11,397 nt of DNA from Candidatus Thorarchaeota archaeon (lineage in GTDB: Archaea; Asgardarchaeota; Thorarchaeia; Thorarchaeales; Thorarchaeaceae), in contig JBHLQH010000068.1 of assembly GCA_048884965.1 (NCBI GenBank), positions 1 through 11,397 of the forward strand, in the 5' to 3' direction. Of the stretch, positions 1 to 11,397 are shown piece by piece. The notes beneath the pieces were generated by a model. It saw only the letters and a program-made list of their open reading frames with translations, was not told the DNA's origin and ran no database searches. Positions within the stretch are counted from its first letter, which is position 1; each line of letters starts with the position of its first letter. The translations under genes and the position numbers were made by a program.

Positions 1-2
1 TC

Positions 3-263
3 GACGAGTTCAAGCGGACCATGGAGGTCTCGGAACGATTCCTGAGAAGCAGGCTAGAGGTCATCGAACTCATCCTGGAAGAGTGGAAGAGTCTTCCCCA
101 AGATGTTCAGGAGGGCGGGGAAGGAAAGCGTCTTCTGGAAGTGGTAACCGTCTTCGAGGCTTGGTTCAGCAGCTACTTGGACCTTCTTTCGGATTACAAT
201 AAGCGATTCAATGAACGAATGAAGGAATTGGAGAAGGAACTCTTCCAGTTGAAAGGTCTTTGA
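3..263 (+). CDS. 5'-truncated gene; helical/coiled-coil C-terminus, possibly of a GbsR/MarR-like transcriptional regulator
   Basis: The frame of ORF 21..263 stays open to the window edge (DEFKRTMEVSERF...). The sequence is charged and amphipathic-helical. It stops at 263, 4 nt from the convergent ferredoxin stop. No HTH is visible in the window, so the family call is weak. Confidence 0.5.
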   Translation, partial: DEFKRTMEVSERFLRSRLEVIELILEEWKSLPQDVQEGGEGKRLLEVVTVFEAWFSSYLDLLSDYNKRFNERMKELEKELFQLKGL

Positions 264-267
264 GGAC

Positions 268-621
268 TCAACCGCAGCACGAGGATTTCGTACTGCTACA
301 TCCACACGATGAGTCGGAGTCAGAGCTCTCAGGCTGTTCCTTAGCACCGACCACGGTGTCCTCGCATTCTCCACGTCGCCGAGCGGACTGGTTCCAGATA
401 CATCCACAGCCCACATTCGTCACCGTGATGGCATTGCCTAGGCAGTTCTTTGCACAGGCAGTGCAGTTGGTACAGTCATCCGGACGTGCCATGATAGCAG
501 GACCCTTCTCAGGGAGCTCCCAGACATTGAATGGGCAGACCTCTAGGCAGAGCCCACACCTATTGCATGCTAGTGGATTGTACAGTAAATCTGTTCGTCG
601 TTCTTGAACTGTAATCGTCAT
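268..621 (-). CDS. hgcB: HgcB-like 2x[4Fe-4S] ferredoxin with extended Cys-rich C-terminal tail (divergent from canonical HgcB)
   Basis: Two CxxCxxCxxxC motifs (CNRCGLCLEVCP, C19-C29; CTNCTACAKNC, C50-C60). These are followed by AITVTNVGC, resembling HgcB AIxVxxGVGC, and a terminal vicinal Cys pair (SSCCG*). The gene starts 4 nt after the hgcA-like stop. The second motif deviates from canonical C(M/I)ECGAC. Confidence 0.82.
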   Translation of the reverse strand: MTITVQERRTDLLYNPLACNRCGLCLEVCPFNVWELPEKGPAIMARPDDCTNCTACAKNCLGNAITVTNVGCGCIWNQSARRRGECEDTVVGAKEQPESSDSDSSCGCSSTKSSCCG

Positions 622-625
622 ATTA

Positions 626-2338
626 TCACCAACCTAGGATGAATGTAAGGATATTGAACCCGATGATGAAGAGACCTCCGATCTTCAGTGTCCATATCAG
701 ATAAGGATACTCTTGTCTTATGACCTTTGGGTCGCTCACAGGAGTCATACCTGCGAAGTCCATTGTCAGAGTAATGGATAGCACGAATTGAGCTGCTAGC
801 CATGTGACGAAAAGTGTCCAGTGGGCGTTCAGGAGGAACATAATGATAGCAGCCACTGGCATGGTAATCAGAGCAAAGCCAATGCCTCGACGAATAAAGG
901 AGTTGTCCTTCGAAGGCAGAACCGGGAAGATCAGACCTAGTACCAGTGCATTTCCAAGGAGCGCCAGAAGGAACTGGAGAACTAAGAGAGATACTGAGAG
1001 GCTTGTGGGCAATAGCAATGAGAATACCGCTGGGAGGAGAAAGAATAGGAAAGCATTGATTCCTAACAATCCAACCACCAAAGCAGCAAATGGCTTCCAT
1101 AGGATCGCAGCGAAAAGGAAGGGGACGTGTGCCACTGTCATCTCCAGTCGTTCTTTGAGATTGAAGGTCACAGAAGCCATCTCTCTCGGCTTTGGCCGGG
1201 GCTTCTCTAGGTTCATCCATTTTGATAGGTCCTGAATCCTCACTGGGCCATATTTCACCCTGAAACCTGTTCTTTCTCGAATCTCAGTCGTATCCATCCC
1301 TGCAGCTGCAAGCTGAGGTAGAATCAGCTCTCGATGATTCACAATCCTCTGAAGTTCAGTCATCCTGATCATATGGATAACATCATCGCTATTGAAGTGA
1401 ATTCCACGAGCAGCACACCAGACATTGATGCCATCAGTGTCGCAGACCAATACCCAAGCCTCGATATTGTCCTTTGCTAATGCTCGCATGACAGTATAGT
1501 ACGTCAGCTCATAGTTTGCTGTCACAATGACAGGACTATCAGGAGATGGATTGCCTATCTTGAAGAGACCCGGTTGTACAGGCATGCCCCTCCAGCTGCC
1601 TGTAAGATGATTATACCAGATTCGACTCCTCGCACCGATTCCTGTGTAGGGGCGATCTAGGTTTGTATAGGGATTGGGTACTTCCTGTGATCCATTGGTA
1701 CCAACAACGAAGGTTATCTCAGAACCGTATGACTCGATGGTATCAATCTCTAGTCCAGCAATCTGAACGAGTTGAGTAAGGTCAATGACAGGCGGAGGGA
1801 GTCGTTTTCCAGCTTGTTTCTCAGCATCTCTACGATTCGTCCAGAATCTCTTTTCGTCCGCACGTTTCTTGGGGAGGGTCTCTGAGGCAATAGCAAATAC
1901 TCCATTCTCTTTTAGCAGGCCTCTCACAATTTTCATGAAGAGGTCTCGACGAGATGGCTTGAGTTCGGATAGTAAGAACGTACTGACAATAAGGTCGAAC
2001 CTTTCCGATGGATCCAGTTGCTTGTCGATGTCTTCGCCTACTTGCAAGACATCCTGATGAATGAAATCCGGAGGGTTATTCATTTCTTTTACCTTTGCCC
2101 GCGCCGTGTGAATCATCTCTTCGTTGGCATCGATTCCAACCACAGCAGCACCCTTCATCGAAGCCTCAATGACGAACAATCCGGGACCGCAACCAAGGTC
2201 TAATACCTTCATTCCAGGTTTGACCAGATCAAGTATCTTCTCTCGAATCTGAGAGGCACGTCCATCAAGCACCTTGTCGAAGGCTTGATCATATGTTTCA
2301 GGCTCTCTTTCAAGAGCTGCCATAAATGCGACTGCCAA
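626..2338 (-). CDS. hgcA: Fusion of class I SAM-dependent methyltransferase (aa ~1-215) and HgcA-like corrinoid-binding domain with transmembrane region (aa ~235-570)
   Basis: N-terminus: SAM motif I VLDLGCGPG, VVGID, FDLIVS and LLKENG. Centre: the HgcA/CdhD-like motif series PVQPGLFKIGNPSPDSPVIVTANYELT, DTDGINVWCAARG, HRELILPQLAAAG, TGFRVKYGPVR and EMASVTFNLKERL. C-terminus: about 5 hydrophobic helices with PVLPSKDNSFIRRG and MDFAGMTP matching HgcA TM-region motifs. TTG start at 2338 has a strong SD; ATG at 2323 is an alternative start. The symbol denotes homology only. Confidence 0.9.
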   Translation of the reverse strand: MAVAFMAALEREPETYDQAFDKVLDGRASQIREKILDLVKPGMKVLDLGCGPGLFVIEASMKGAAVVGIDANEEMIHTARAKVKEMNNPPDFIHQDVLQVGEDIDKQLDPSERFDLIVSTFLLSELKPSRRDLFMKIVRGLLKENGVFAIASETLPKKRADEKRFWTNRRDAEKQAGKRLPPPVIDLTQLVQIAGLEIDTIESYGSEITFVVGTNGSQEVPNPYTNLDRPYTGIGARSRIWYNHLTGSWRGMPVQPGLFKIGNPSPDSPVIVTANYELTYYTVMRALAKDNIEAWVLVCDTDGINVWCAARGIHFNSDDVIHMIRMTELQRIVNHRELILPQLAAAGMDTTEIRERTGFRVKYGPVRIQDLSKWMNLEKPRPKPREMASVTFNLKERLEMTVAHVPFLFAAILWKPFAALVVGLLGINAFLFFLLPAVFSLLLPTSLSVSLLVLQFLLALLGNALVLGLIFPVLPSKDNSFIRRGIGFALITMPVAAIIMFLLNAHWTLFVTWLAAQFVLSITLTMDFAGMTPVSDPKVIRQEYPYLIWTLKIGGLFIIGFNILTFILGW

Positions 2339-2340
2339 CT

Positions 2341-2733
2341 CTAGACCTCCTTCATAACGCCAACGAATTTCTTCACTGCTTCTCTACAGTCATCAGACAA
2401 TGAGTAATAGGTCCACCGCCCTCTTCGTTCACTATGGAGACACCCAGACTCCCGCAATTGTCTAAGATGGTGTGAAACTAGAGGTTGCCGCTCCTCATTG
2501 AGTGCGGCTTGGAATTCGCAGACGCACGCTTCACCAATCCTGTAAAGGAAAAGCACAATGCCTGTGCGGATTCCAGCTGAGAATATGGTAGAACTGAGCG
2601 GAGAGAAAGATTCCACAAATTTTTCCATTGCTTCAAGACGTGTTTCATACGGGACGCAACAAGGTGCTTTCTCAGGAACCTCCTTGCAGAACTTCTGAAG
2701 GTTCTCAACTCGTTCAACATAATCGCGGGTCAT
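2341..2733 (-). CDS. arsR: ArsR/SmtB-family metal(loid)-sensing transcriptional repressor
   Basis: Winged HTH signature RTGIVLFL...EACVCEF...QPLVSHHLRQLRESG...ERRGRWTYYSL. It carries an alpha3 ELCVCD-like motif (C70, C72) and N-terminal C16, C25 and C26. The stop lies 2 nt before the start of the methyltransferase-HgcA gene. Confidence 0.92.
   Translation of the reverse strand: MTRDYVERVENLQKFCKEVPEKAPCCVPYETRLEAMEKFVESFSPLSSTIFSAGIRTGIVLFLYRIGEACVCEFQAALNEERQPLVSHHLRQLRESGCLHSERRGRWTYYSLSDDCREAVKKFVGVMKEV
2345..2352 (-). promoter_or_regulatory. Shine-Dalgarno site (AAGGAGGT) for the methyltransferase-HgcA fusion, embedded in the last arsR codons
   Basis: The minus strand reads ATG AAG GAG GTC TAG AG TTG, placing AAGGAGGT 6 nt before the TTG at 2338. 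Confidence 0.75.
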
Positions 2734-2753
2734 AGATGTTCGTATAAGTCTAA

Positions 2754-2763
2754 TTTATATAAA
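2754..2763 (-). promoter_or_regulatory. Archaeal TATA box for the arsR-hgcA-like-hgcB-like operon (probably leaderless transcript)
   Basis: TTTATATAAA lies 21-30 nt upstream of the arsR ATG (2733), the typical TATA distance for a leaderless archaeal mRNA. There is no SD before arsR. Confidence 0.7.
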
Positions 2764-2785
2764 CCTAGTGAATATAGTAATACTT

Positions 2786-2857
2786 GCCATCCTGAAAAGG
2801 GGTCTGTACAAATCAATGCTTCAGACCCCATGGCAGGATAGCTGCCATGAAGTCTGA
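2786..2857 (-). other. Overlapping inverted repeats able to form two mutually exclusive RNA hairpins (terminator/attenuator-like element or operator)
   Basis: Minus strand hairpin 1: UCAGACUUCAUGGCAG-CUAUC-CUGCCAUGGGGUCUGA (2857-2821), a 16-bp stem with two U-G pairs. Alternative hairpin 2: GCUAUCCUG-CCAU-GGGGUCUG (2842-2822) pairs with CAGACCCC-UUUU-CAGGAUGGC (2806-2786). Confidence 0.6.
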
Positions 2858-2890
2858 GCTATGATGCATGAAATGAACTGTGAAACATCT

Positions 2891-3730
2891 TCAGAATCCT
2901 GAAAGGAACCTAACGAAGTCAACGATCCAGTGAAATGCCATTGCGCTTTCAAGATTGCGCCTAAGAGCAAGGATTGTTGGTGGAAGTCCAAATAGAAGGC
3001 CCATAGCAGCTCCATAGGCGATCGCGAATACTGGCTGCACGACGAACAAATCACTCATGTGACTATAGTTATGGACTATAAGGGACAGGAAAGCAGCAAG
3101 CGGCACTGCATGGTTGGGGACATACTTGCTGAAAACAAACCATAGCATGTTCAGAAAGGCAAGCCGATAGATAATCTCCTCAACCATTCCAGGCTGCAAT
3201 GCCCTAAGTGCAGAAAGGAATGGATCCTGCCAAATGAAGGGTTGTCCTTCCATGAGTGTGAATGCATATGCATTTATGACAGCAAATGGAATTCCGATTA
3301 GCAGTCCAACAAGAATACCTTTACCTACGTCAGCGAATTTTCTCTCAGACGTTGCCAAGTGTACAGGGCCATCTTTCTTCCTCATGATTAAGCCAGCTGA
3401 GAGAATAATGCTTATCGACACACCGTGACCGATTGAAGTAAGAATTGGGTCGTAGAATCTCAGGATTGCATAAAACGTGGTAAAAGTAATTGAAATCCCT
3501 AACAACAACCCGACAGCTATCACAAGCAGAACATCATCTCGAGTTAGCAGTGAATATCCCTTGAACAGAATGGGTACTGATAGGAAAAGAACTCCCAAGT
3601 TAAAGATATCAAATAGCATCAGGACTTCAGTCGAGATTGCCAGTAATGTTCTTACAACAAATATGGCAAGTACAATCAAATAGAGAAGAAGAGGTACGAT
3701 CCAATTCCTCTCAGAAATGTTCGAAGTCAA
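2891..3730 (-). CDS. CPBP (Abi/CAAX protease type II) family intramembrane glutamic endopeptidase
   Basis: Multi-TM protein with the EExxxR motif (PGMVEEIIYR), HNYSH and the late HxxxD/N motif (AMAFHWIVDF). TTG start. Confidence 0.85.
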   Translation of the reverse strand: MTSNISERNWIVPLLLYLIVLAIFVVRTLLAISTEVLMLFDIFNLGVLFLSVPILFKGYSLLTRDDVLLVIAVGLLLGISITFTTFYAILRFYDPILTSIGHGVSISIILSAGLIMRKKDGPVHLATSERKFADVGKGILVGLLIGIPFAVINAYAFTLMEGQPFIWQDPFLSALRALQPGMVEEIIYRLAFLNMLWFVFSKYVPNHAVPLAAFLSLIVHNYSHMSDLFVVQPVFAIAYGAAMGLLFGLPPTILALRRNLESAMAFHWIVDFVRFLSGF

Positions 3731-3849
3731 TCAAGCATCACTGAAATCCTGAGCCTTCTCGATGTGGTTAAATACCCTATTCTAAGGACCAATGTTTTGA
3801 CATGCTTCAATATGCAGAAGAACGTGCAAAACTTGCTTAATGCTTAGTA

Positions 3850-4758
3850 CTATAATGGCCGCTCCTTGACTGCATGCTGGAAGCGCGACATCTCGTGTAG
3901 GAAGTCAGAGCCTTTTCGCAGGATTTCCATTGGATCCTTTACGATGTAACTTATTCTGTACTCAAGACCGAAATTACTCTCGGCCCAGAATATAATCTCG
4001 GGCTTGATAAGAAACTCTTTAGTCCAGCGCGAACGGACTTCTTCAAAATATGTGTCGACCTTATCCATATTATAGTCCTTGTGTACTGAGAGTGGAAACG
4101 AATAACGATAGACCTCCGTCCCTTTGGTCAATGTTCGCAAACCATGAAGCGCAGATTTGAGCCGACTTGATTTTCCTTCATCCTCATGAATATCTGTACC
4201 TTTCTCTGCTAGCAGGTCATCAACCCGAACACGATAGTTTGTCACTTGCGAGTCGACGACTTTGTTGTTTGGCACGTATTCCTTGGTGTAATCCGGTTGA
4301 AGCAGTCTTGTGTAATTGAGTGTGATTTCGAGAACGATTCCCTCAATATCTCCTATCTTCACATAGTCACCGACACGGAAGGGTCTTGCCCCTAGAACAT
4401 AGAACCCACTCACCATATTTGACAATGCTCTTGAGAATGCAAGACCTATGGCAGTCCCGAAGAGTGCTCCTCCCGTTATGATGGTGGTCTCAGGTATAAC
4501 CGTTATCGCAGAAAGCGTAGTGGTTAGAGCAAAAGCGAAAAAGAGCAATCGCAGCATCAGTTTGACTCCACTGGTTGCTTCAGCGGGCATTCCAACTTTT
4601 CTGAAGGTCAGGGTAAGTGTACGCATAACAATCAGATACATTATGTAGATGACAATCAGAAAAGGAAAGATTGCTATGAGAGGTGCCCAGTTTTGGAGAT
4701 TGTATGGTTGTAGGAGGGCTGCGATAATCCCAACGAACTCAGTAAATATATCCTGCAT
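3850..4758 (-). CDS. mscS: Small-conductance mechanosensitive channel (MscS family)
   Basis: N-terminal TM helices, then GTAIGLAFSRALSNMVSGFYVLGARPFRVGDYVKIGDIEGIVLEITLNYTRL and VPNNKV, the MscS TM3/beta-domain signature. Confidence 0.9.
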   Translation of the reverse strand: MQDIFTEFVGIIAALLQPYNLQNWAPLIAIFPFLIVIYIMYLIVMRTLTLTFRKVGMPAEATSGVKLMLRLLFFAFALTTTLSAITVIPETTIITGGALFGTAIGLAFSRALSNMVSGFYVLGARPFRVGDYVKIGDIEGIVLEITLNYTRLLQPDYTKEYVPNNKVVDSQVTNYRVRVDDLLAEKGTDIHEDEGKSSRLKSALHGLRTLTKGTEVYRYSFPLSVHKDYNMDKVDTYFEEVRSRWTKEFLIKPEIIFWAESNFGLEYRISYIVKDPMEILRKGSDFLHEMSRFQHAVKERPL

Positions 4759-4827
4759 ATCTAATAGCTCCCCGAGTAGATGAAAAGTAATTGTGATAGT
4801 CAGTTAAATGATTTCGCAAATGATGAC

Positions 4828-4868
4828 AGAAAAAAGAAAATGGGAGCGCCGCCAGAGAGCGTCGCCCC
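4828..4868 (-). terminator. Hairpin plus U-tract terminator downstream of the 4891 membrane-protein gene
   Basis: Minus strand GGGGCGACGC-TCTCTG-GCGGCGCTCC (9 of 10 pairs, including one G-U), followed by CATTTTCTTTTTTCT. It begins 22 nt after the stop codon. Confidence 0.7.
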
Positions 4869-4890
4869 TAGTTTCACAGAATCATCTCAC

Positions 4891-5808
4891 CTACGAAGTG
4901 GGTTGTATCTTTGGCTCAAGGGTAGCTCCCTTGAGAGATTTGTGGATATTCGTGAGGCCAAATATCAGAGCGGGAAGGAGGAAGAGGAGAAAGATAAAGG
5001 CCCCAATCGCTGTCCACGCTGTGAGGGCTGCAAAGAGTACATCCGTCATTGGATTCGGGATGATGCCTTGTGATACAAGATACACAGAATACACAGATAG
5101 CGGTCCAACGAGAATGAAGATGACCAGCATGAACAGAATAAGGAATCCAAACACTCTGTTCATATTCCCTCGAACTGTCCTGAATGAATACTTCAAGGCG
5201 TCCATTGCTCCCATGTCATCAACAATAGCAGGACATACGAGAGAGAAGAGCCCCAGCATGATGAAGAAGTAGATGAATCCAATAATCCCTTCAATCCAAT
5301 CGACAGGCCATGGAATTGTTCCAAAGCCGTACGCCCAGCTGATGATGTAGCCAACGATCAGAGCAGGAAGGCCGATGACGATGGCAAGAAGGATACCTCC
5401 AACAATGAGAGGAACGAACTTCTTCCTGAGCCAAGTGAAGGCATGCTCAACGCGTGTGTCCTGTGTTTCAATGTATTCCTTTGCAATACCAAAGAGTGCA
5501 CCAAGTACCCATATGGCCAGGGCAGATAGAGGTAATATCACTCCAAGGAAAGAAACTGAAAGAATAACCGCTACACTGCCTGAAGTGAGGGGTAATGTCC
5601 ATGCTACAAGAGTTTCTACCCACTGCGTGATGAAATCAGCAGAGGGATCAAGCAACCATACAGCAAGACCAATTGGCAGAGTTATCACTGCGAAGGTAAG
5701 ACCCAGAATAACAAGAATGCCTATGATGGCAAGAAAGAAGGTAAGTATCTTGCTTTTTGCCATAGATAGACCCAGTTTCAGATCGTCATATGCTTGCATA
5801 TTGACCAT
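4891..5808 (-). CDS. Uncharacterised integral membrane protein (about 6 TM; resembles GDPD-membrane-domain/DUF975-like proteins)
   Basis: Long hydrophobic segments and an internal PAIVDDMGAMDALKYSFRTVRGN motif typical of this loose family. ATG 5808 is preferred over TTG 5859 because a TATA-like TTATTTAA lies 27-34 nt upstream of it. Confidence 0.7.
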   Translation of the reverse strand: MVNMQAYDDLKLGLSMAKSKILTFFLAIIGILVILGLTFAVITLPIGLAVWLLDPSADFITQWVETLVAWTLPLTSGSVAVILSVSFLGVILPLSALAIWVLGALFGIAKEYIETQDTRVEHAFTWLRKKFVPLIVGGILLAIVIGLPALIVGYIISWAYGFGTIPWPVDWIEGIIGFIYFFIMLGLFSLVCPAIVDDMGAMDALKYSFRTVRGNMNRVFGFLILFMLVIFILVGPLSVYSVYLVSQGIIPNPMTDVLFAALTAWTAIGAFIFLLFLLPALIFGLTNIHKSLKGATLEPKIQPTS

Positions 5809-5834
5809 CGATTTGCTTCTCTCACGCCTCCTGC

Positions 5835-5842
5835 TTAAATAA
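5835..5842 (-). promoter_or_regulatory. Putative TATA box for the 4891-5808 gene
   Basis: Minus strand AAACATTATTTAAG, 27-34 nt upstream of ATG 5808. Confidence 0.45.
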
Positions 5843-5952
5843 TGTTTGATAGATACCAAACGTTGATTTCTTGAAACTCACATTATACTGGGAATTCACT
5901 CCAAGATTCCGAGCAATTGCTTTATGATTCAGTTCATGTTCTCAATGAAAGG

Positions 5953-6879
5953 ATGAAAATGAGGCTGCACACTGTCGACTTCACGGATTCTGCAGATGAG
6001 GAAACGTTCAAGGGATTCATCACTAACTTGGATCTCAGGCCACCAGTACTCATCAAACCCAACTGGGGATGCTCAGCTTTCTACACAGAGGCGGAGATCC
6101 TTGACTGGACGCTATCTGCAATCGATGGGGAGAAGATTGTCGTCGAGAGCTATGGGTGGGCACGAACGAAGGAGTTCATTGAAACTGGAAAGATGGGATC
6201 GAAGCAACGTAGCGACCTGCGAAAGAGTGACAAGTGGTTTCTTCAGCATTCGGGAATCGACAAGGTGCTAGAGAAGCACAACGTTGAGTTCCTCAACATC
6301 ACTGAAGAGATCTGGGGCAAGCGGATAGCTGACCCTCAAGAGGTCAAGAATCTTGTAGAGAAGGACTTTGAGACTGTGCAGTTCGAGAAGATGTATAGTG
6401 AAGTGCCACAACGTCTTTACGAATTAAGGGGAGGTACTCTCCTGAGCCTTGCAAAGCTACGACTTGGTGTTCCTCCGTACACAGTATCCCTTTCTGTGAA
6501 GAACCTCTTTGGAATGATTCCAGGACCAGGCAGATATGCACCGTATCATGGAAAGAAGGACTGCAATCTCGCCCAGAGTGTTCTAGACATCAATAAGATT
6601 TACCGTTCGCTCTTCGATGTCAAGGGAGTCATAGAGGGCGTATTCACCGCTGATGTCGTCAATGAGTTACCACGAACAGCCAAGCTGTATAGCAACCTCG
6701 GTGTGCTTTGGGCTTGTAAAGATACGATAGCGCTCGATGCCATTGTTGCGATGCAGTTCGGAAGGAACCCATCGGATATCGACTATCTCAGGCATCCAGC
6801 AGAAACCATCGGTAAGTGGAGCGACAAGGTCATCAAGTTGGGACAAGAACATTCCCTAGTTCATTTGATAGGAATGTAG
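5953..6879 (+). CDS. DUF362 domain-containing protein
   Basis: PVLIKPN near the N-terminus, IVVES, LLSLAKL...VSLSVKNLFGMIPG, VIEG and DTIALDAI match the DUF362 motif order. The start is likely ATG 5953 or 5959 rather than TTG 5917. Confidence 0.75.
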   Translation: MKMRLHTVDFTDSADEETFKGFITNLDLRPPVLIKPNWGCSAFYTEAEILDWTLSAIDGEKIVVESYGWARTKEFIETGKMGSKQRSDLRKSDKWFLQHSGIDKVLEKHNVEFLNITEEIWGKRIADPQEVKNLVEKDFETVQFEKMYSEVPQRLYELRGGTLLSLAKLRLGVPPYTVSLSVKNLFGMIPGPGRYAPYHGKKDCNLAQSVLDINKIYRSLFDVKGVIEGVFTADVVNELPRTAKLYSNLGVLWACKDTIALDAIVAMQFGRNPSDIDYLRHPAETIGKWSDKVIKLGQEHSLVHLIGM

Positions 6880-6884
6880 CAGGA

Positions 6885-7550
6885 CTATTCCACAAGCGTC
6901 AGCTCGATATAGATGGTCTGGCCTTGATGTTCGTAGAACCAAAGAGTATTCAGTGGCATTCCAGTTGGGAGTGATGAATCACCCCACCAGCCACCATTGT
7001 CATCATACGTTCCATACCAGAAATAATGCATTGTCAGGTACTCATCCTCAAGGACCGTTACATACTCCTCTGTACCTGAACCACCACCAAGCTCAGTATT
7101 AGGATACAGTCCTGCGATCGAACTCCAGTTACCAATAGGAAGGACACACCCTGATAGCCCCTCACATACAATGAGTTCCATGATGAGACTCAGGGAGGTG
7201 CCATTCGCAAAGGTGCAGTTCACTTTTGAGAACCGTATCACACGTTCAGCGAAGTATTGCTCAACCATGTGATCTAAAGGTGGCAAAGCTGTGATGGTTG
7301 CATTGATTATGGTACCATTCAGTCGGTGAATCTCTGATGATGCGTAAAGCCCTCCGTAGGTATTTCCTATCGTTCGTATATGATACTGAAAGATGTCGCC
7401 CACATCAACACCCCATTCCAAGCCTGTCATTGGCGTTAGAGGAGGAGGAAATAATGAGATAGGGACCATCGCTCCAATTATGATGATGGACACTGCAGCA
7501 ACTACTATCACGATAGAGTATCTTCTTTCCACAGTAGTACAAACTCCCAT
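6885..7550 (-). CDS. Hypothetical exported/membrane-anchored protein
   Basis: Basic residues followed by an N-terminal hydrophobic segment (RRYSIVIVVAAVSIIIIGAMVPISLF) and a Pro-rich linker. The soluble domain starts LEWGVDVGDIFQYHI and has several N-x-S/T sequons (NGT, NAT, NCT, NWS). Confidence 0.7.
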   Translation of the reverse strand: MGVCTTVERRYSIVIVVAAVSIIIIGAMVPISLFPPPLTPMTGLEWGVDVGDIFQYHIRTIGNTYGGLYASSEIHRLNGTIINATITALPPLDHMVEQYFAERVIRFSKVNCTFANGTSLSLIMELIVCEGLSGCVLPIGNWSSIAGLYPNTELGGGSGTEEYVTVLEDEYLTMHYFWYGTYDDNGGWWGDSSLPTGMPLNTLWFYEHQGQTIYIELTLVE

Positions 7551-7597
7551 CTTGTATGGGCTCTTGACACATTTATCATTTTAGAACAAAGAGAATC

Positions 7598-8770
7598 TCA
7601 TAATTTCTTTAGAGGGATGCTGAAAATGAAACATACACCCTTGGTATGGTCACCTTTGACACTATCTTCAATCCAAAGGTCGCCTCCATATCTATCAATG
7701 ATCCGTTTCACTAGGGTAAGGCCAATTCCTGTCACACGCTTGCTAGCATCGTGCTGCCCAGAGAGAATCGATTGCTTCCTTCTATCATCGATACCAGGAC
7801 CGGAATCCTTGATGATTAGGGTTAGAAAATGCTTCGAATCGTCTTTGACATGCACATCTATCTGCACAAAGTTAGAGGGGTCAAGTCGTACAGAATTGTG
7901 GAGAAGATTATAGAAGACATCGACGAGAAATTCGTCCGCATGAACTTGATACATGTTCTCACTGAAATCTTTCGTGATATGGATTTCTTTTTCAGGAAAG
8001 GTGTTCTTGATCATCTCTTCCGCAACAACTAGGGAGGAGTAGGGATCTAGAAAAATCAGATCGAGTGTTTCACCCTCTAGTGCTGCAAGTTTCTTGACAT
8101 AGCTTACCAATGCTGCACCGCGTTTGCTTTGCGAAAGTGCTGCGTGAACAAGATGATGGATTTCCTCATTGAGCAGACCTCCTTCTAACATTAGCTCCAT
8201 ACTTGACATAATCCCCTGCATCATGTTAGAGAGATCATGTGCCATCAAATCATTGTAGAATGCTGCAGTTTCGAGGGCTTCCTCCAGTGCCTTCTTCGCT
8301 TGCACTGTTTCTGTGATATCAAGCATGGAAATAATGACCATTTCGTAGGTGTTTCGGAATTCCTCGGGAACGGAGAGACCCATTAGGATGTGCCTTGGTT
8401 CGCCCTTAACTGTACTCAATGTTACAGTACACTCAAACTTGTGACCTCCATCAGCGATGGTCAATATCTCCCCCAGAAAAAGGTACAAAGCATCCTTGAC
8501 CAGTATCTTTCCTAGACTGCCAAGAAGCTCCTCTTCGGTTTTGACGCCTTGTAGGTCAAGCGTGGCTTTGTTCACACGGATGACTTTCACTAGATTTGCG
8601 CATTTCCAAATCTCATCAGGATCGTCTTCGAAATACTTGCGCAGGTCATCTATTCCCTGCGCCTTCAGACTGTCAATATACTTCTTGACATCAGAGAAGT
8701 CTTCCTCCCATAATGATACTGGAGAATCCTCAAAAAGTGTCAGATACCGACTCTCCACGTCTGGGCTCAT
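7598..8770 (-). CDS. Soluble PAS-domain sensor histidine kinase
   Basis: PAS (RYLTLFEDSPVSLWEEDFS...VNKATLDL...LDITE), H-box DLMAHDLSN, N-box DVFYNLLHNS, G1 DSGPGI and G2 GIGLTLVKRII. No TM segment. Confidence 0.92.
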   Translation of the reverse strand: MSPDVESRYLTLFEDSPVSLWEEDFSDVKKYIDSLKAQGIDDLRKYFEDDPDEIWKCANLVKVIRVNKATLDLQGVKTEEELLGSLGKILVKDALYLFLGEILTIADGGHKFECTVTLSTVKGEPRHILMGLSVPEEFRNTYEMVIISMLDITETVQAKKALEEALETAAFYNDLMAHDLSNMMQGIMSSMELMLEGGLLNEEIHHLVHAALSQSKRGAALVSYVKKLAALEGETLDLIFLDPYSSLVVAEEMIKNTFPEKEIHITKDFSENMYQVHADEFLVDVFYNLLHNSVRLDPSNFVQIDVHVKDDSKHFLTLIIKDSGPGIDDRRKQSILSGQHDASKRVTGIGLTLVKRIIDRYGGDLWIEDSVKGDHTKGVCFIFSIPLKKL

Positions 8771-8948
8771 TTTCTATGCCTCTATCTCTTCAACGTACTC
8801 TTTTGATTATAGCAGATATCGAGAAATACGTTGTGTTCAATATAAGGATGGCTCAGATGTCGATATAGAGATTTCATCTACATTTTTCTGCACCATGACA
8901 CAATGCTCAAATGGCATTGCACAAGTGAGTGTGGAAGATGGGATGCCT

Positions 8949-10472
8949 ATGCGTTTCGCAACTAAGGAAACTCTCACAGAGGAAGAGATTGAGCAGGGAC
9001 TCAACGCGGTCATCCGTGATGGAGTGACCTCCCAGATCAAGCTCACCCTGACAGAGAGCGTCTTCTTGGTTGCATTCGCACTGGCACTAGGAGCGTCAAA
9101 CTCAGTCATTGGTATCCTAGCAGCTATACCACCTCTCGCGCAGCTTCTTCAGCTACCCTCAATCTATCTTGTCGAGCGACTGCGACGGAGAAGAATGATT
9201 ACAGTCATTGCATCAGCGGCGAGTCGAAGCTCTATCTTCGTCATGGCACTGATCCCACTATTCATGCCAAATATAGAGGGACTCATCTTGCTCATTCTCT
9301 CAGTGATCACACATGCTGTGTTCAATGCCATGTCCACAACAGCGTGGAACTCATGGATGCGAGACCTGATTCCTGAGGAACGACTTGGGAGGTTCTTCTC
9401 GAAGAGATTGCTTGTCCAGACGTTCTTGGGAGTGATTGCAACACTAGCTACTGGATTCTTCCTTGAATGGTGGATAACGTCCATGATAGGTCAAGAGATC
9501 ATTGGGTATTCCTTCGTCTTCTTTGCAGGATTTATCGCTGGTATGATAGGGGTCTATATTATTTCCACAATACCTGAACCATCCATGCGACCTCTTGAAA
9601 CGTTTCCAAGCTTCTCAGAGCTCGTGAGAGCCCCTCTCAAGAATGAGAACTACAGGAACCTTATGTTCTTCTCAAGTACATGGAGTCTTGCGACTGCGCT
9701 TGTTGCACCGTTCTTTACTGTGTACCTACTCGTAAGACTTGGTTTCCCAATCTCGACGGTCACAGTACTCTCAGTAGTGACTCAGTTGACAAGCATAATG
9801 TTCTATAGATTGTGGGGAAGACTTTCCGATCGATTCAGCAACAAGGACGTTCTACAGGTTACTGCCCCAGTTTTCATCATTGGGATAATTCTGTGGATCT
9901 TTGCGGGGATGCCAATCCTGATCGGATTTATCCTTCCCCTTGTGATTCTTATCCACATCCTGCTAGGCTTCGGTGCGGCTGGCATCAATCTAGCTTCTGG
10001 CAACATGGCATTGAAGCTTGCACCAAAAGGGGAAGCGACTCCCTTCTTAGCCTCTTGGAGCTTTGTTAATTCCTTTGCTGCAGCTGTTGCTCCGTTCTTA
10101 GGAGGGGTGATAGCTGATCTGCTGGCTGGAACCCAGTTCATCATCTCTGCAGAGATAATCAGCGATGGAGCCCCTATACAGATACCAGTTATGATATTCA
10201 CGGGACTAGACTTCCTCTTCATCATATCCTTCTTAGTTGGCCTCTATGCTTTACATAGGCTCTCTATCGTGAGAGAAACTGGAGAGGTCGAAGAGAGTGT
10301 GATTATAGCAGCAGTGCTAGCAGAGGCGCGAAGAGGCTTTAGGAACTTGTCCACGGTGGATGGGCTCAGGAATACTTTCGCACCTCTATTTGGATTGTTG
10401 AACCAGCTTGCTTCGAACAACAAAAAGAACGATAAGAAAAAGCAGGATAGCACTTCAAATCAGGAATCCTGA
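8949..10472 (+). CDS. Major facilitator superfamily (MFS) transporter
   Basis: About 12 hydrophobic helices with MFS loop motifs (LVERLRRRR, WMRDLIPEERLGRFFS, WGRLSDRFSNK). The real start is probably ATG 8949 or 8943; the ORF-track extension to 8457 runs antisense into the kinase gene. Confidence 0.88.
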   Translation: MRFATKETLTEEEIEQGLNAVIRDGVTSQIKLTLTESVFLVAFALALGASNSVIGILAAIPPLAQLLQLPSIYLVERLRRRRMITVIASAASRSSIFVMALIPLFMPNIEGLILLILSVITHAVFNAMSTTAWNSWMRDLIPEERLGRFFSKRLLVQTFLGVIATLATGFFLEWWITSMIGQEIIGYSFVFFAGFIAGMIGVYIISTIPEPSMRPLETFPSFSELVRAPLKNENYRNLMFFSSTWSLATALVAPFFTVYLLVRLGFPISTVTVLSVVTQLTSIMFYRLWGRLSDRFSNKDVLQVTAPVFIIGIILWIFAGMPILIGFILPLVILIHILLGFGAAGINLASGNMALKLAPKGEATPFLASWSFVNSFAAAVAPFLGGVIADLLAGTQFIISAEIISDGAPIQIPVMIFTGLDFLFIISFLVGLYALHRLSIVRETGEVEESVIIAAVLAEARRGFRNLSTVDGLRNTFAPLFGLLNQLASNNKKNDKKKQDSTSNQES

Positions 10473-11380
10473 CCAAAATACAAAGTAAGATCAACCCAGT
10501 TTACACGTTGGAGAAAGCCCAATCTATTGTAGAATTCTCTGATGGGACCCTCAGTATCAGTGAAAAGCCATAGTTCCGTGACTGAGAGCTCATTCAGACG
10601 ATGCATAAGCTCATCTACAAGACTTCTTGCTACACCCCTTCGACGATGGTCCTTCACGACACCGAGACCATGTATCCACGCATGCCGTTCTTGTCCGGAT
10701 TGACCCTCAAAAGAGAATATCTCGCACATCGTAGTACCTACAATTGAGTCGTTGATAAGATAGGCCAATTGGAGGTTTGGATGAAACCCTTCCTCCTCTG
10801 AAACCCAGCTTTCAAGCTCACTCTCTTCAAGGGGTTGGGAGGGATCATCATGGAAAGCTTCTCGATTGGCTTTCACAAAATCGTGGATGGTAATACCCTC
10901 GGATAGGGAGCGAATCAGTGGAGTGTCTTGATAGGAGGAACTTGGAGTCTTCATAACCCTTCTTGAGATTAGGCTGTGTTCTTGCTCCAGCACAAATCCA
11001 GCTTCAATGAGAGACGACAGAACCTGTTGCTCAGAATCCCAAACCCATGTATTGAGAGAGATGGCATCTAGTTCCCTTGACTGAGATACAATATGATGAA
11101 GAAAGGTCTTCACAAGCGATAGGGAAGCATTGGAGCACGCAAAGTCCTTGAGAGTGAAGTTATGAGATTCAGAGTCTTTCTCAAGGACAGCGATTCCTAC
11201 TGGATACTGACCGGAGAATGCAATCATTGGTTGCATGTCTGGTGTGGAAATCAATTGAAGGACATCTGATCTCGTGATCGACTTTGGCCACGGATATTGA
11301 CCATATGTCGCCTGATGAATCCTCAACCACATGTCAACGTGATCCAAATCCAATGGATTCACAGTCAATTCTTGATCCAT
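10460..11380 (-). CDS. Tandem GNAT-family N-acetyltransferase (MshD-like two-domain architecture)
   Basis: C-terminal acetyl-CoA motif IHGLGVVKDHRRRGVARSL...FYNRLGF. A degenerate N-terminal GNAT repeat ends in LIEAGF. The gene overlaps the convergent MFS gene by 13 nt. Confidence 0.85.
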   Translation of the reverse strand: MDQELTVNPLDLDHVDMWLRIHQATYGQYPWPKSITRSDVLQLISTPDMQPMIAFSGQYPVGIAVLEKDSESHNFTLKDFACSNASLSLVKTFLHHIVSQSRELDAISLNTWVWDSEQQVLSSLIEAGFVLEQEHSLISRRVMKTPSSSYQDTPLIRSLSEGITIHDFVKANREAFHDDPSQPLEESELESWVSEEEGFHPNLQLAYLINDSIVGTTMCEIFSFEGQSGQERHAWIHGLGVVKDHRRRGVARSLVDELMHRLNELSVTELWLFTDTEGPIREFYNRLGFLQRVNWVDLTLYFGQDS

Positions 11381-11397
11381 CTAGGTCTCATCCTTTC

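Follow-up and report, generated by a model that had tools for sequence, protein, structure and literature searches.

A CpaM-type methyltransferase fused to an HgcA-like corrinoid protein in an ArsR-linked operon of a Thorarchaeota archaeon

Background

The natural role of HgcA-type corrinoid proteins and the origin of the methyl group that their corrinoid carries are both open questions in mercury biogeochemistry. A stretch of 11,397 nucleotides from a Candidatus Thorarchaeota archaeon (assembly GCA_048884965.1, contig JBHLQH010000068.1, positions 1 to 11,397; hereafter, the window) bears on both, as one gene on its minus strand (626–2338) encodes a 570-aa protein in which a CpaM-type methyltransferase, an HgcA-like corrinoid domain and a five-helix membrane domain are joined. 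Does such a protein carry its own methyl-loading enzyme? S-adenosylmethionine (SAM) was demonstrated in 2024 to be the methyl donor of the purified HgcAB corrinoid, in which no SAM binding site is known (PMC11588087). A preliminary description of the locus, made from the DNA sequence, had cited SAM in this role, in line with that publication, and had read the fusion as a Rosetta stone that identifies the loading enzyme. Here, the gene was compared with profile libraries, homologues, solved structures and a structural model, and its relatives were placed in trees and in their genomic contexts.

Results and discussion

The frame at 626–2338 is the longest minus-strand open reading frame (ORF) of the window and runs through 570 codons with zero internal stops, so that the single uninterrupted frame reported earlier stands, supported by Pfam, NCBIfam and the AF2 model as well as by the ORF itself. 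It begins with TTG at 2338, with AGGAGG 7 nt upstream, and this start is credible because orthologues begin MAVAFMAALE with ATG in a register that is identical, on alignment, to that of the window's TTG. Pfam placed class I methyltransferase families at aa 28–199 and CdhD (PF03599) at aa 254–369. With alignments, NCBIfam and hhalign added, a CpaM-type class I SAM methyltransferase domain was assigned to aa 1–215 (1694–2338), carrying the motifs M-x2-LE-x2-P-x2-Y, VLDLGCGPG (motif I), D70 and STFLLSEL. This is followed by a connector at aa 216–247 (1598–1693), which includes NGSQEVPNPYTNLDRPY and an invariant G233, by an HgcA-type corrinoid-binding domain, akin to the one in corrinoid iron–sulfur protein (CFeSP), at aa 248–385 (1184–1597), and by a membrane domain at aa 394–567 (638–1159). 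The corrinoid domain matches PF03599 (1.4e-23), the CFeSP structures 2h9a and 4djd by sequence, and 9a0b by fold. Within it, the cap helix NVWCAARG (aa 305–312; 1403–1426) contains the putative cobalt-ligating Cys308, with R311-G312 in place of the canonical G-K.

An AF2 model of the full chain, built from 125 homologues, had a mean predicted local distance difference test score (pLDDT) of 90.9 and a predicted template modelling score (pTM) of 0.86; the membrane domain was modelled as five long helices at pLDDT mostly above 85, and aa ~215–232 had a pLDDT of ~90. These values over the whole chain suggest that the methyltransferase and corrinoid domains are held in a fixed mutual arrangement. 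The segment at aa ~215–232 had been described as a Pro/Asn-rich linker. The segment itself is present, but it does not look floppy: because model confidence is high there and the invariant Gly233 follows directly, it is better described as an ordered connector than as a loose tether. The best fold match of the model was the computed HgcAB model 9a0b at 29% identity, with ordinary class I methyltransferases of small molecules and CFeSP ranking next. A sequence comparison with solved proteins placed CFeSP large subunits (2h9a, 4djd) and generic methyltransferases nearest and turned up no experimental structure of HgcA. The fusion is the single HgcA-type gene in the window's genome, which also holds a CFeSP-type gene on another contig.

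The identity of the N-terminal half was examined by building a profile from 18 fused methyltransferase domains and running it against 1.84 billion representatives. Stand-alone CpaM proteins were reached only by this exhaustive search, a word-indexed search for short relatives of aa 1–225 having returned mostly contig-end fragments and generic methyltransferases. At E < 1e-30 the profile gave 131 clusters, in which fused proteins were mixed with stand-alone proteins of 205–232 aa that matched end to end. All 61 tested stand-alone proteins match the CpaM family NF043040, among them P0170 at 265 bits, above the cut-off, and hhalign of the fused domains against stand-alone CpaM gave a probability of 100% (E 1.4e-60, 221 columns). 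Together with the direct profile comparison of the window protein with NF043040 (130 bits, aa 4–168), this alignment bears out the resemblance to CpaM-type methyltransferases that the preliminary description had pointed to, and on sequence grounds the N-terminal half of the fusion is a CpaM-family methyltransferase. The N-terminal M-x2-LE-x2-P-x2-Y(D) helix, motif I and the SEL motif are common to fused and stand-alone forms: M6, L9, E10, P13 and Y16, as well as G49/G51/G53 and D70, are invariant in an alignment of 22 fusions, and M7, E11 and Y17 are invariant, and P14 nearly so, in the stand-alone CpaM alignment. Motif I and D70 of the fusion line up with the corresponding motifs of the solved methyltransferase 1wzn. 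In the 22-fusion alignment, the only conserved cysteine of the domain lies within motif I. An ArsM-type reading of the domain was rejected, as the conserved substrate cysteines of that family are absent.

Distribution and arrangement of the modules

A word-indexed search with the fusion found 662 relatives, and nearly all of the best 120 of these are 540–590 aa long and carry both sets of domains; the Asgard types among these 120 are Thor, Loki/Prometh, Heimdall, Hod, Sif and Odin. Scanning one genome per species gave 594 relatives, with full-length fusions in Asgard archaea, Chloroflexota/Anaerolineales, Poribacteria and unclassified bacteria. In the window's phylum, 400 genomes were compared and 212 had a match at E ≤ 1e-20, which was full length in about 150; the fusion is present in five of the six genomes of the window's own genus as well as in complete Asgard chromosomes (L015 = CP070761, L016 = CP070695, L060 = CP070831). 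The preliminary description had named a stop in the linker, or the lack of the fusion in any other genome, as grounds for refuting it; there is no stop, and more than 100 full-length collinear orthologues exclude a chance joining or a chimera. A methyltransferase fused to the HgcA-like part, with a separate HgcB-like protein, is the usual Asgard layout, as in the window. This architecture is as real as had been claimed, but its novelty is less than had been assumed, being common in databases, where NCBI names several fused relatives "corrinoid protein-associated methyltransferase CpaM".

Split pairs of CpaM and HgcAB-like genes were also found, in keeping with the Rosetta-stone logic applied to the fusion. 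On a marine contig (L099), the stand-alone CpaM P0170 overlaps stop-to-start with a gene for a 400-aa fused HgcAB-like protein, and the pair has two ArsR-family regulators, a CzcB/RND pump, a CDF transporter, a P-type ATPase and an HMA protein as neighbours. In other lineages, loci L103 and L104 combine an ArsR-type regulator, two small unknown proteins, a ~210-aa methyltransferase, scored by Pfam only, and an HgcAB-like gene, the last two being separated in L104 by a DJ-1/PfpI gene; in L101, CpaM P0185 is followed by an HgcA-like fragment. P0225 (644 aa) and P0276 (635 aa) are CpaM–HgcA–HgcB triple fusions that score above both cut-offs. All four arrangements of the CpaM, HgcA and HgcB modules exist. 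Complex prediction for the natural split pair, from stand-alone CpaM and HgcAB-like alignments, gave a median score of 0.31, where the mark was 0.32 and the controls scored 0.00, and was counted neither way.

Two further observations concern these relatives. Several Thor genomes contain, beside a ~580-aa fusion, a second frame of ~650 aa (G353:C39:8260–9612, G356:C57:5504–7105, G342:C24 and G377:C37) with matches to aa 3–445/533. These frames are probably CpaM–HgcA–HgcB triple fusions resembling P0225 and P0276; no second copy of this length was found in the window's genome. The bacterial cassettes L099:3173–5001, L103:1080–2415 and L104:466–1747 share an ArsR/MarR-type regulator at their head, followed by two small proteins (~140 and 155–175 aa) without a Pfam family, which may belong to the system as additional components that the Asgard operon lacks.

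Phylogeny and relation to canonical HgcA

A quick maximum-likelihood tree of the corrinoid and membrane domains was built from 100 rows and midpoint-rooted, with support from the Shimodaira–Hasegawa-like approximate likelihood ratio test (SH-aLRT) only and with long branches flagged between the Thor and Loki clades. In this tree, 40 canonical HgcA sequences formed one clade (SH-aLRT 99), all of them lacking a methyltransferase domain and all with NVWCA(A/G/S)GK. All methyltransferase-linked forms fell outside this clade, in a Thor clade that includes the window's protein (99), a Loki/Heimdall clade (100), a group that unites HgcAB-like proteins with the Chloroflexota fusions (95), and two small pairs from bacteria. 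In a tree of the methyltransferase domain, likewise quick and with SH-aLRT support, the Asgard fusions and the small bacterial pairs formed one clade (99) and the Chloroflexota fusions another (96), the latter in an unresolved polytomy with stand-alone CpaMs, and two triple fusions stood in two further places. As the major groups of the two trees agree, with fused forms in at least three separate places in each, the two halves have travelled together, with at least three joinings or separations on the way. This co-phylogeny, combined with repeated joining, is the strongest argument that sequence comparison offers here for a direct functional coupling of CpaM and the corrinoid protein.

CpaM was found in none of the 40 sampled loci of the canonical, mercury-methylating HgcA clade, and the methyltransferase genes that do lie near canonical hgcAB (L062, L074, L077, L088, L091 and L098) match in the Rossmann core only, at ≤50 bits, and are not CpaM. 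Judged from these loci, the CpaM link applies to the HgcAB-like side of the family and not to HgcAB proper. The cap helix is NVWCAARG without variation in the Asgard fusions, NVWCAAGG in the Chloroflexota fusions and HgcAB-like proteins, and NVWCAAGK in canonical HgcA, where the 40 loci show AAGK, AGGK or ASGK. The window's protein departs from the expected consensus N(V/I)WCA(A/G)GK, and the cobalt-ligating cysteine is kept in all compared forms. Lin et al. (2023) found Asgard sequences in a "fused-HgcAB" subtree and trimmed the first 327 columns of their alignment as poorly aligned (PMC10083202). Our placement of the fusion agrees with theirs, and their trimming could have hidden the extra methyltransferase domain. 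Among the canonical clade, two HgcA frames (L065:6326–7996 and L073:6386–7975, both NVWCAAGK) have 230–260 aa ahead of the corrinoid domain with no methyltransferase match, which represent either start-codon over-extension by ORF calling or an unrelated N-terminal extension.

Operon, regulator and clues to the substrate

The fusion is the middle gene of a tightly packed minus-strand operon, arsR / cpaM-hgcA-like / hgcB-like. An ArsR/SmtB metalloregulator of 130 aa (2341–2733) has its stop 2 nt ahead of the fusion start, and an HgcB-like 2×[4Fe-4S] ferredoxin of 117 aa (268–621) begins 4 nt past the fusion stop. The regulator scores 59.4 bits against NF033788, above the 55-bit cut-off, and has an N-terminal Cys pair and the alpha-3 site ACVCEF; the CVC motif and the N-terminal cysteine cluster are kept in all ten aligned Asgard fusion-linked ArsRs. 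A TATA-like box, TTTATATAAA (2754–2763, minus strand), lies ~25 nt upstream of the arsR ATG and is a candidate archaeal promoter that would give a near-leaderless transcript. A scan for sigma-70 promoters and terminators gave sites no more numerous than in shuffled sequence. For the ferredoxin, the top matches were the ferredoxin end of HgcAB-like proteins, and HgcB, along with Fer4 Pfam families. It scores 44 bits against HgcB NF040864, for which the cut-off is 99, and its cysteine features are CNRCGLCLEVCP, CTNCTACAKNC, a GCGC after the clusters and a C-terminal tail ending in CCG. Asgard partner ferredoxins retain GCGC(I/L)WN at the position of the essential post-cluster cysteine of HgcB, plus a terminal CC(G) pair, and both this cysteine and the C-terminal Cys pair have been tied to metal handling in HgcB (PMC11588087). 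The arrangement recurs in relatives: the HgcB-like gene is immediately downstream of the fusion in 22 of 23 Asgard loci, and an arsR is immediately upstream on the same strand in five of six Thor-clade loci and divergent in several Loki loci.

In 6 of 24 Asgard loci, the fusion has an ACR3-family arsenite exporter beside it or close by (TIGR00832 at 270 bits, slightly short of the cut-off), and in one of these, from a complete 4.3-Mb genome, arsR is divergent from acr3 / fusion / hgcB. On sequence, CVC with an N-terminal cysteine cluster is the signature of ArsRs that sense metals or metalloids, not of sensors of S-adenosylhomocysteine (SAH). In past work, ars genes and ArsR were found beside canonical hgcAB, where the ND132 regulator responds to arsenic and the hgcAB-linked ArsRs resemble SahR (bioRxiv 2022.10.17.512643). 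An SAH-sensing, SahR-like regulator is less likely here, given the conserved CVC and N-terminal Cys pair. The ArsR site, with ACR3 adjoining the fusion in relatives, points to arsenic-like elements, and our best guess is that the substrate is an arsenic-like metalloid rather than mercury. At L017:4155–4898, and also in L027 and L031 (Loki/Heimdall), a DUF166/DfsP-like protein (PF02593; NF041372, 43 bits) accompanies arsR, ACR3 and the fusion.

Proposed mechanism and alternative explanations

Taken together, we think it somewhat probable that the product of the gene is an enzyme of the CpaM/HgcAB-like system, split here over two genes, that transfers methyl groups by way of a corrinoid, is self-contained and anchored in the membrane, and is controlled by an ArsR-type metal(loid) sensor. 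For this enzyme family, the fusion suggests that the methyl source is SAM. From the domains, the fusion and its relatives, the co-phylogeny, the operon and the key cysteines, we infer each chemical step and the substrate as follows. The HgcB-like ferredoxin would reduce the Cys308-ligated corrinoid to Co(I), and the N-terminal CpaM domain would then move the methyl group of SAM onto Co(I) to give methyl-Co(III). From there, the methyl group would move on to a thiophilic metal(loid), which the ferredoxin would present at the membrane face on its Cys-rich tail, and ArsR would de-repress the operon when that metal(loid) is present.

Several points weigh against this proposal. We know of no class I Rossmann methyltransferase that methylates protein-bound cobalt, and of no CpaM or HgcAB-like protein that has been biochemically characterised. 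The window protein falls below the NCBIfam cut-offs, with 130.4 bits against CpaM NF043040 (aa 4–168, profile positions 3–165; cut-off 180), 223.9 bits against HgcAB-like NF043039 (aa 248–537, profile positions 10–281 only; cut-off 285) and 194.7 bits against HgcA NF040863 (aa 253–544; cut-off 275). No ars transporter adjoins the operon in the window or elsewhere in its Thor clade, so that the arsenic link rests on ArsR and on relatives. Finally, purified canonical HgcAB uses SAM without a separate methyltransferase (PMC11588087), and a dedicated loader is therefore not chemically required. With regard to the scores, fused relatives do exceed the CpaM cut-off (P0075 at 211, P0171 at 276 and P0225 at 245 bits), including Loki- and Chloroflexota-type fusions, and the window copy is a divergent member of the Thor clade, which explains its sub-threshold score against CpaM.

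The same behaviour of canonical HgcAB, which needs no extra methyltransferase (PMC11588087), lends some weight to an arrangement in which the corrinoid is loaded otherwise, through SAM bound by the HgcA-like part or from a methyl-pterin, and CpaM methylates the substrate or its first product, for example by adding a second methyl group or by acting on a thiol, a selenol or a small molecule. The surroundings of the N-terminal domain are compatible with this, its nearest structural neighbours being small-molecule methyltransferases such as CmoA, CysG, ChlM, TehB-like and PmtA and its next-best sequence families UbiE/UbiG/BchM/ArsM-like. We nevertheless consider it unlikely, given that the substrate-binding cysteines of ArsM are not conserved and that repeated independent fusion with co-phylogeny is most simply explained if the corrinoid protein is itself the partner or substrate of CpaM. 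Somewhat less likely again is that the fusion works as a mercury methylase, an orthologue of HgcAB that has a SAM domain built in. Several features would suit such an enzyme, namely the NVWC of the cap helix with its Cys308, the five helices in the membrane, and a partner of HgcB type that has both a Cys73 equivalent and a C-terminal CC, and surveys list Asgardarchaeota as putative methylators (PMC12484752). Yet the fusion lies outside the canonical HgcA clade (SH-aLRT 99), its HgcA score is 195 bits where 275 is the cut-off, its cap helix has R-G where confirmed methylators carry G-K, and the fused HgcAB of P. furiosus, the sole tested non-canonical member according to the work as cited in PMC10083202, did not methylate mercury.

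Dechlorination of CCl4 by heterologously expressed HgcAB, described in a 2026 preprint (10.64898/2026.04.26.720869), raises the question of whether the corrinoid module mainly serves a reductive dehalogenase or halomethane-processing enzyme, with metal methylation as a side reaction. This seems quite improbable for the fusion, as the preprint covers canonical HgcAB only, a fused SAM methyltransferase and an ArsR with a CVC sensor site have no obvious part in dehalogenation, and the ACR3 neighbours point to metalloids. In a metagenome-assembled genome of 99 contigs with an estimated contamination of 7.2%, the fusion might be suspected to stem from faulty assembly or binning, or from a recent frameshift that merged two genes. 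For practical purposes this is refuted: the collinear protein recurs in five of the six genomes of the genus, in complete Asgard chromosomes and in over 100 independent assemblies, and the junction region is conserved. For the CpaM-loaded corrinoid enzyme that we prefer, a bolder extension is conceivable, though we hold it only tentatively and doubt it more than we credit it: CpaM may be the first class I SAM methyltransferase acting on protein-bound corrinoid cobalt and part of an ArsM-independent cobalamin route that methylates arsenic-like metalloids in Asgard archaea and Chloroflexota, SAM loading may be ancestral in the HgcA superfamily, and mercury methylation may be a later offshoot that lost the loader.

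Comparison with known systems

The catalogued CpaM (NF043040) and HgcAB-like (NF043039) pair is built from the same two modules, with end-to-end homology and an ArsR-family regulator nearby. It differs in layout, as the operon of the window has the methyltransferase fused to the corrinoid protein and the ferredoxin separate, the reverse of the catalogued arrangement, and in that this operon has NVWCAARG instead of NVWCAAGG and a ferredoxin with a long Cys-rich tail. With HgcA/HgcB of P. mercurii ND132, the system shares a corrinoid domain with a Cys-on cap helix, a five-helix membrane domain, an upstream ArsR-type regulator, a 2×[4Fe-4S] partner with extra cysteines, and SAM as a proven or implied donor; canonical HgcA, in contrast, has neither a methyltransferase domain nor a CpaM neighbour, carries NVWCAAGK and forms a separate clade. 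The CFeSP large subunit (CdhE/AcsC; 2h9a, 4djd) has a homologous corrinoid domain (E 2e-14) and, with MeTr, follows a like principle, in which a methyltransferase docks on a corrinoid domain that is mobile, but CFeSP is soluble, takes its methyl group from methyl-tetrahydrofolate through the TIM-barrel MeTr, and has no Cys ligand. In the reactivation of MetH, a fused multi-domain protein, cob(I/II)alamin is re-methylated by SAM together with an electron donor of low potential. The cycle proposed here would resemble this SAM-dependent reactivation by analogy, although the SAM domain of MetH is not Rossmann class I and SAM serves there as a repair donor, not as a catalytic one.

The CpaM/HgcAB-like system is thus already in NCBIfam and partly annotated, but uncharacterised. 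Haft and Gwadz (2023) are reportedly the likely source of its models, and in the literature searched, no paper names CpaM in the corrinoid-protein sense or describes a methyltransferase–HgcA fusion. Repeated independent fusion on the non-canonical half of the family lends genomic support to SAM as the methyl source, with CpaM as a concrete candidate loader on one polypeptide in which the half-reactions can be separated by point mutation, and the context of ArsR and ACR3 narrows the candidate substrates to a few. With the fusion, direct tests become feasible both for methyl loading and for the natural substrate of the HgcA superfamily. In metagenome surveys, "hgcA" hits from Asgard archaea and many Chloroflexota fall into a different clade, the one linked to a methyltransferase, and evidence is needed before they are counted as mercury methylators.

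Other features of the window

The operon is flanked by genes for CAAX-protease-like, MscS, DUF7847, DUF362, histidine kinase, MFS transporter and GNAT proteins. Three overlapping inverted repeats (21 nt, 81% complementary; 16 nt, 88%; 11 nt, 82%) lie at 2786–2867, in the interval from the stop of the CAAX-protease-like gene upstream (2891) to the TATA box of arsR, and one of them is followed by CCCCTTTTC on the minus strand. These repeats could be the terminator of the CAAX-protease-like gene or could form alternative hairpins. A GNAT acetyltransferase of 306 aa (10460–11380, minus strand) resembles ArsN2 at 26.5 bits, far under the cut-off, and this resemblance is probably coincidental. The histidine-kinase ORF (7598–8770, minus strand) and a 671-aa MFS-transporter ORF (8457–10472, plus strand) overlap by ~300 nt on opposite strands, so that the MFS gene probably has its real start further downstream.

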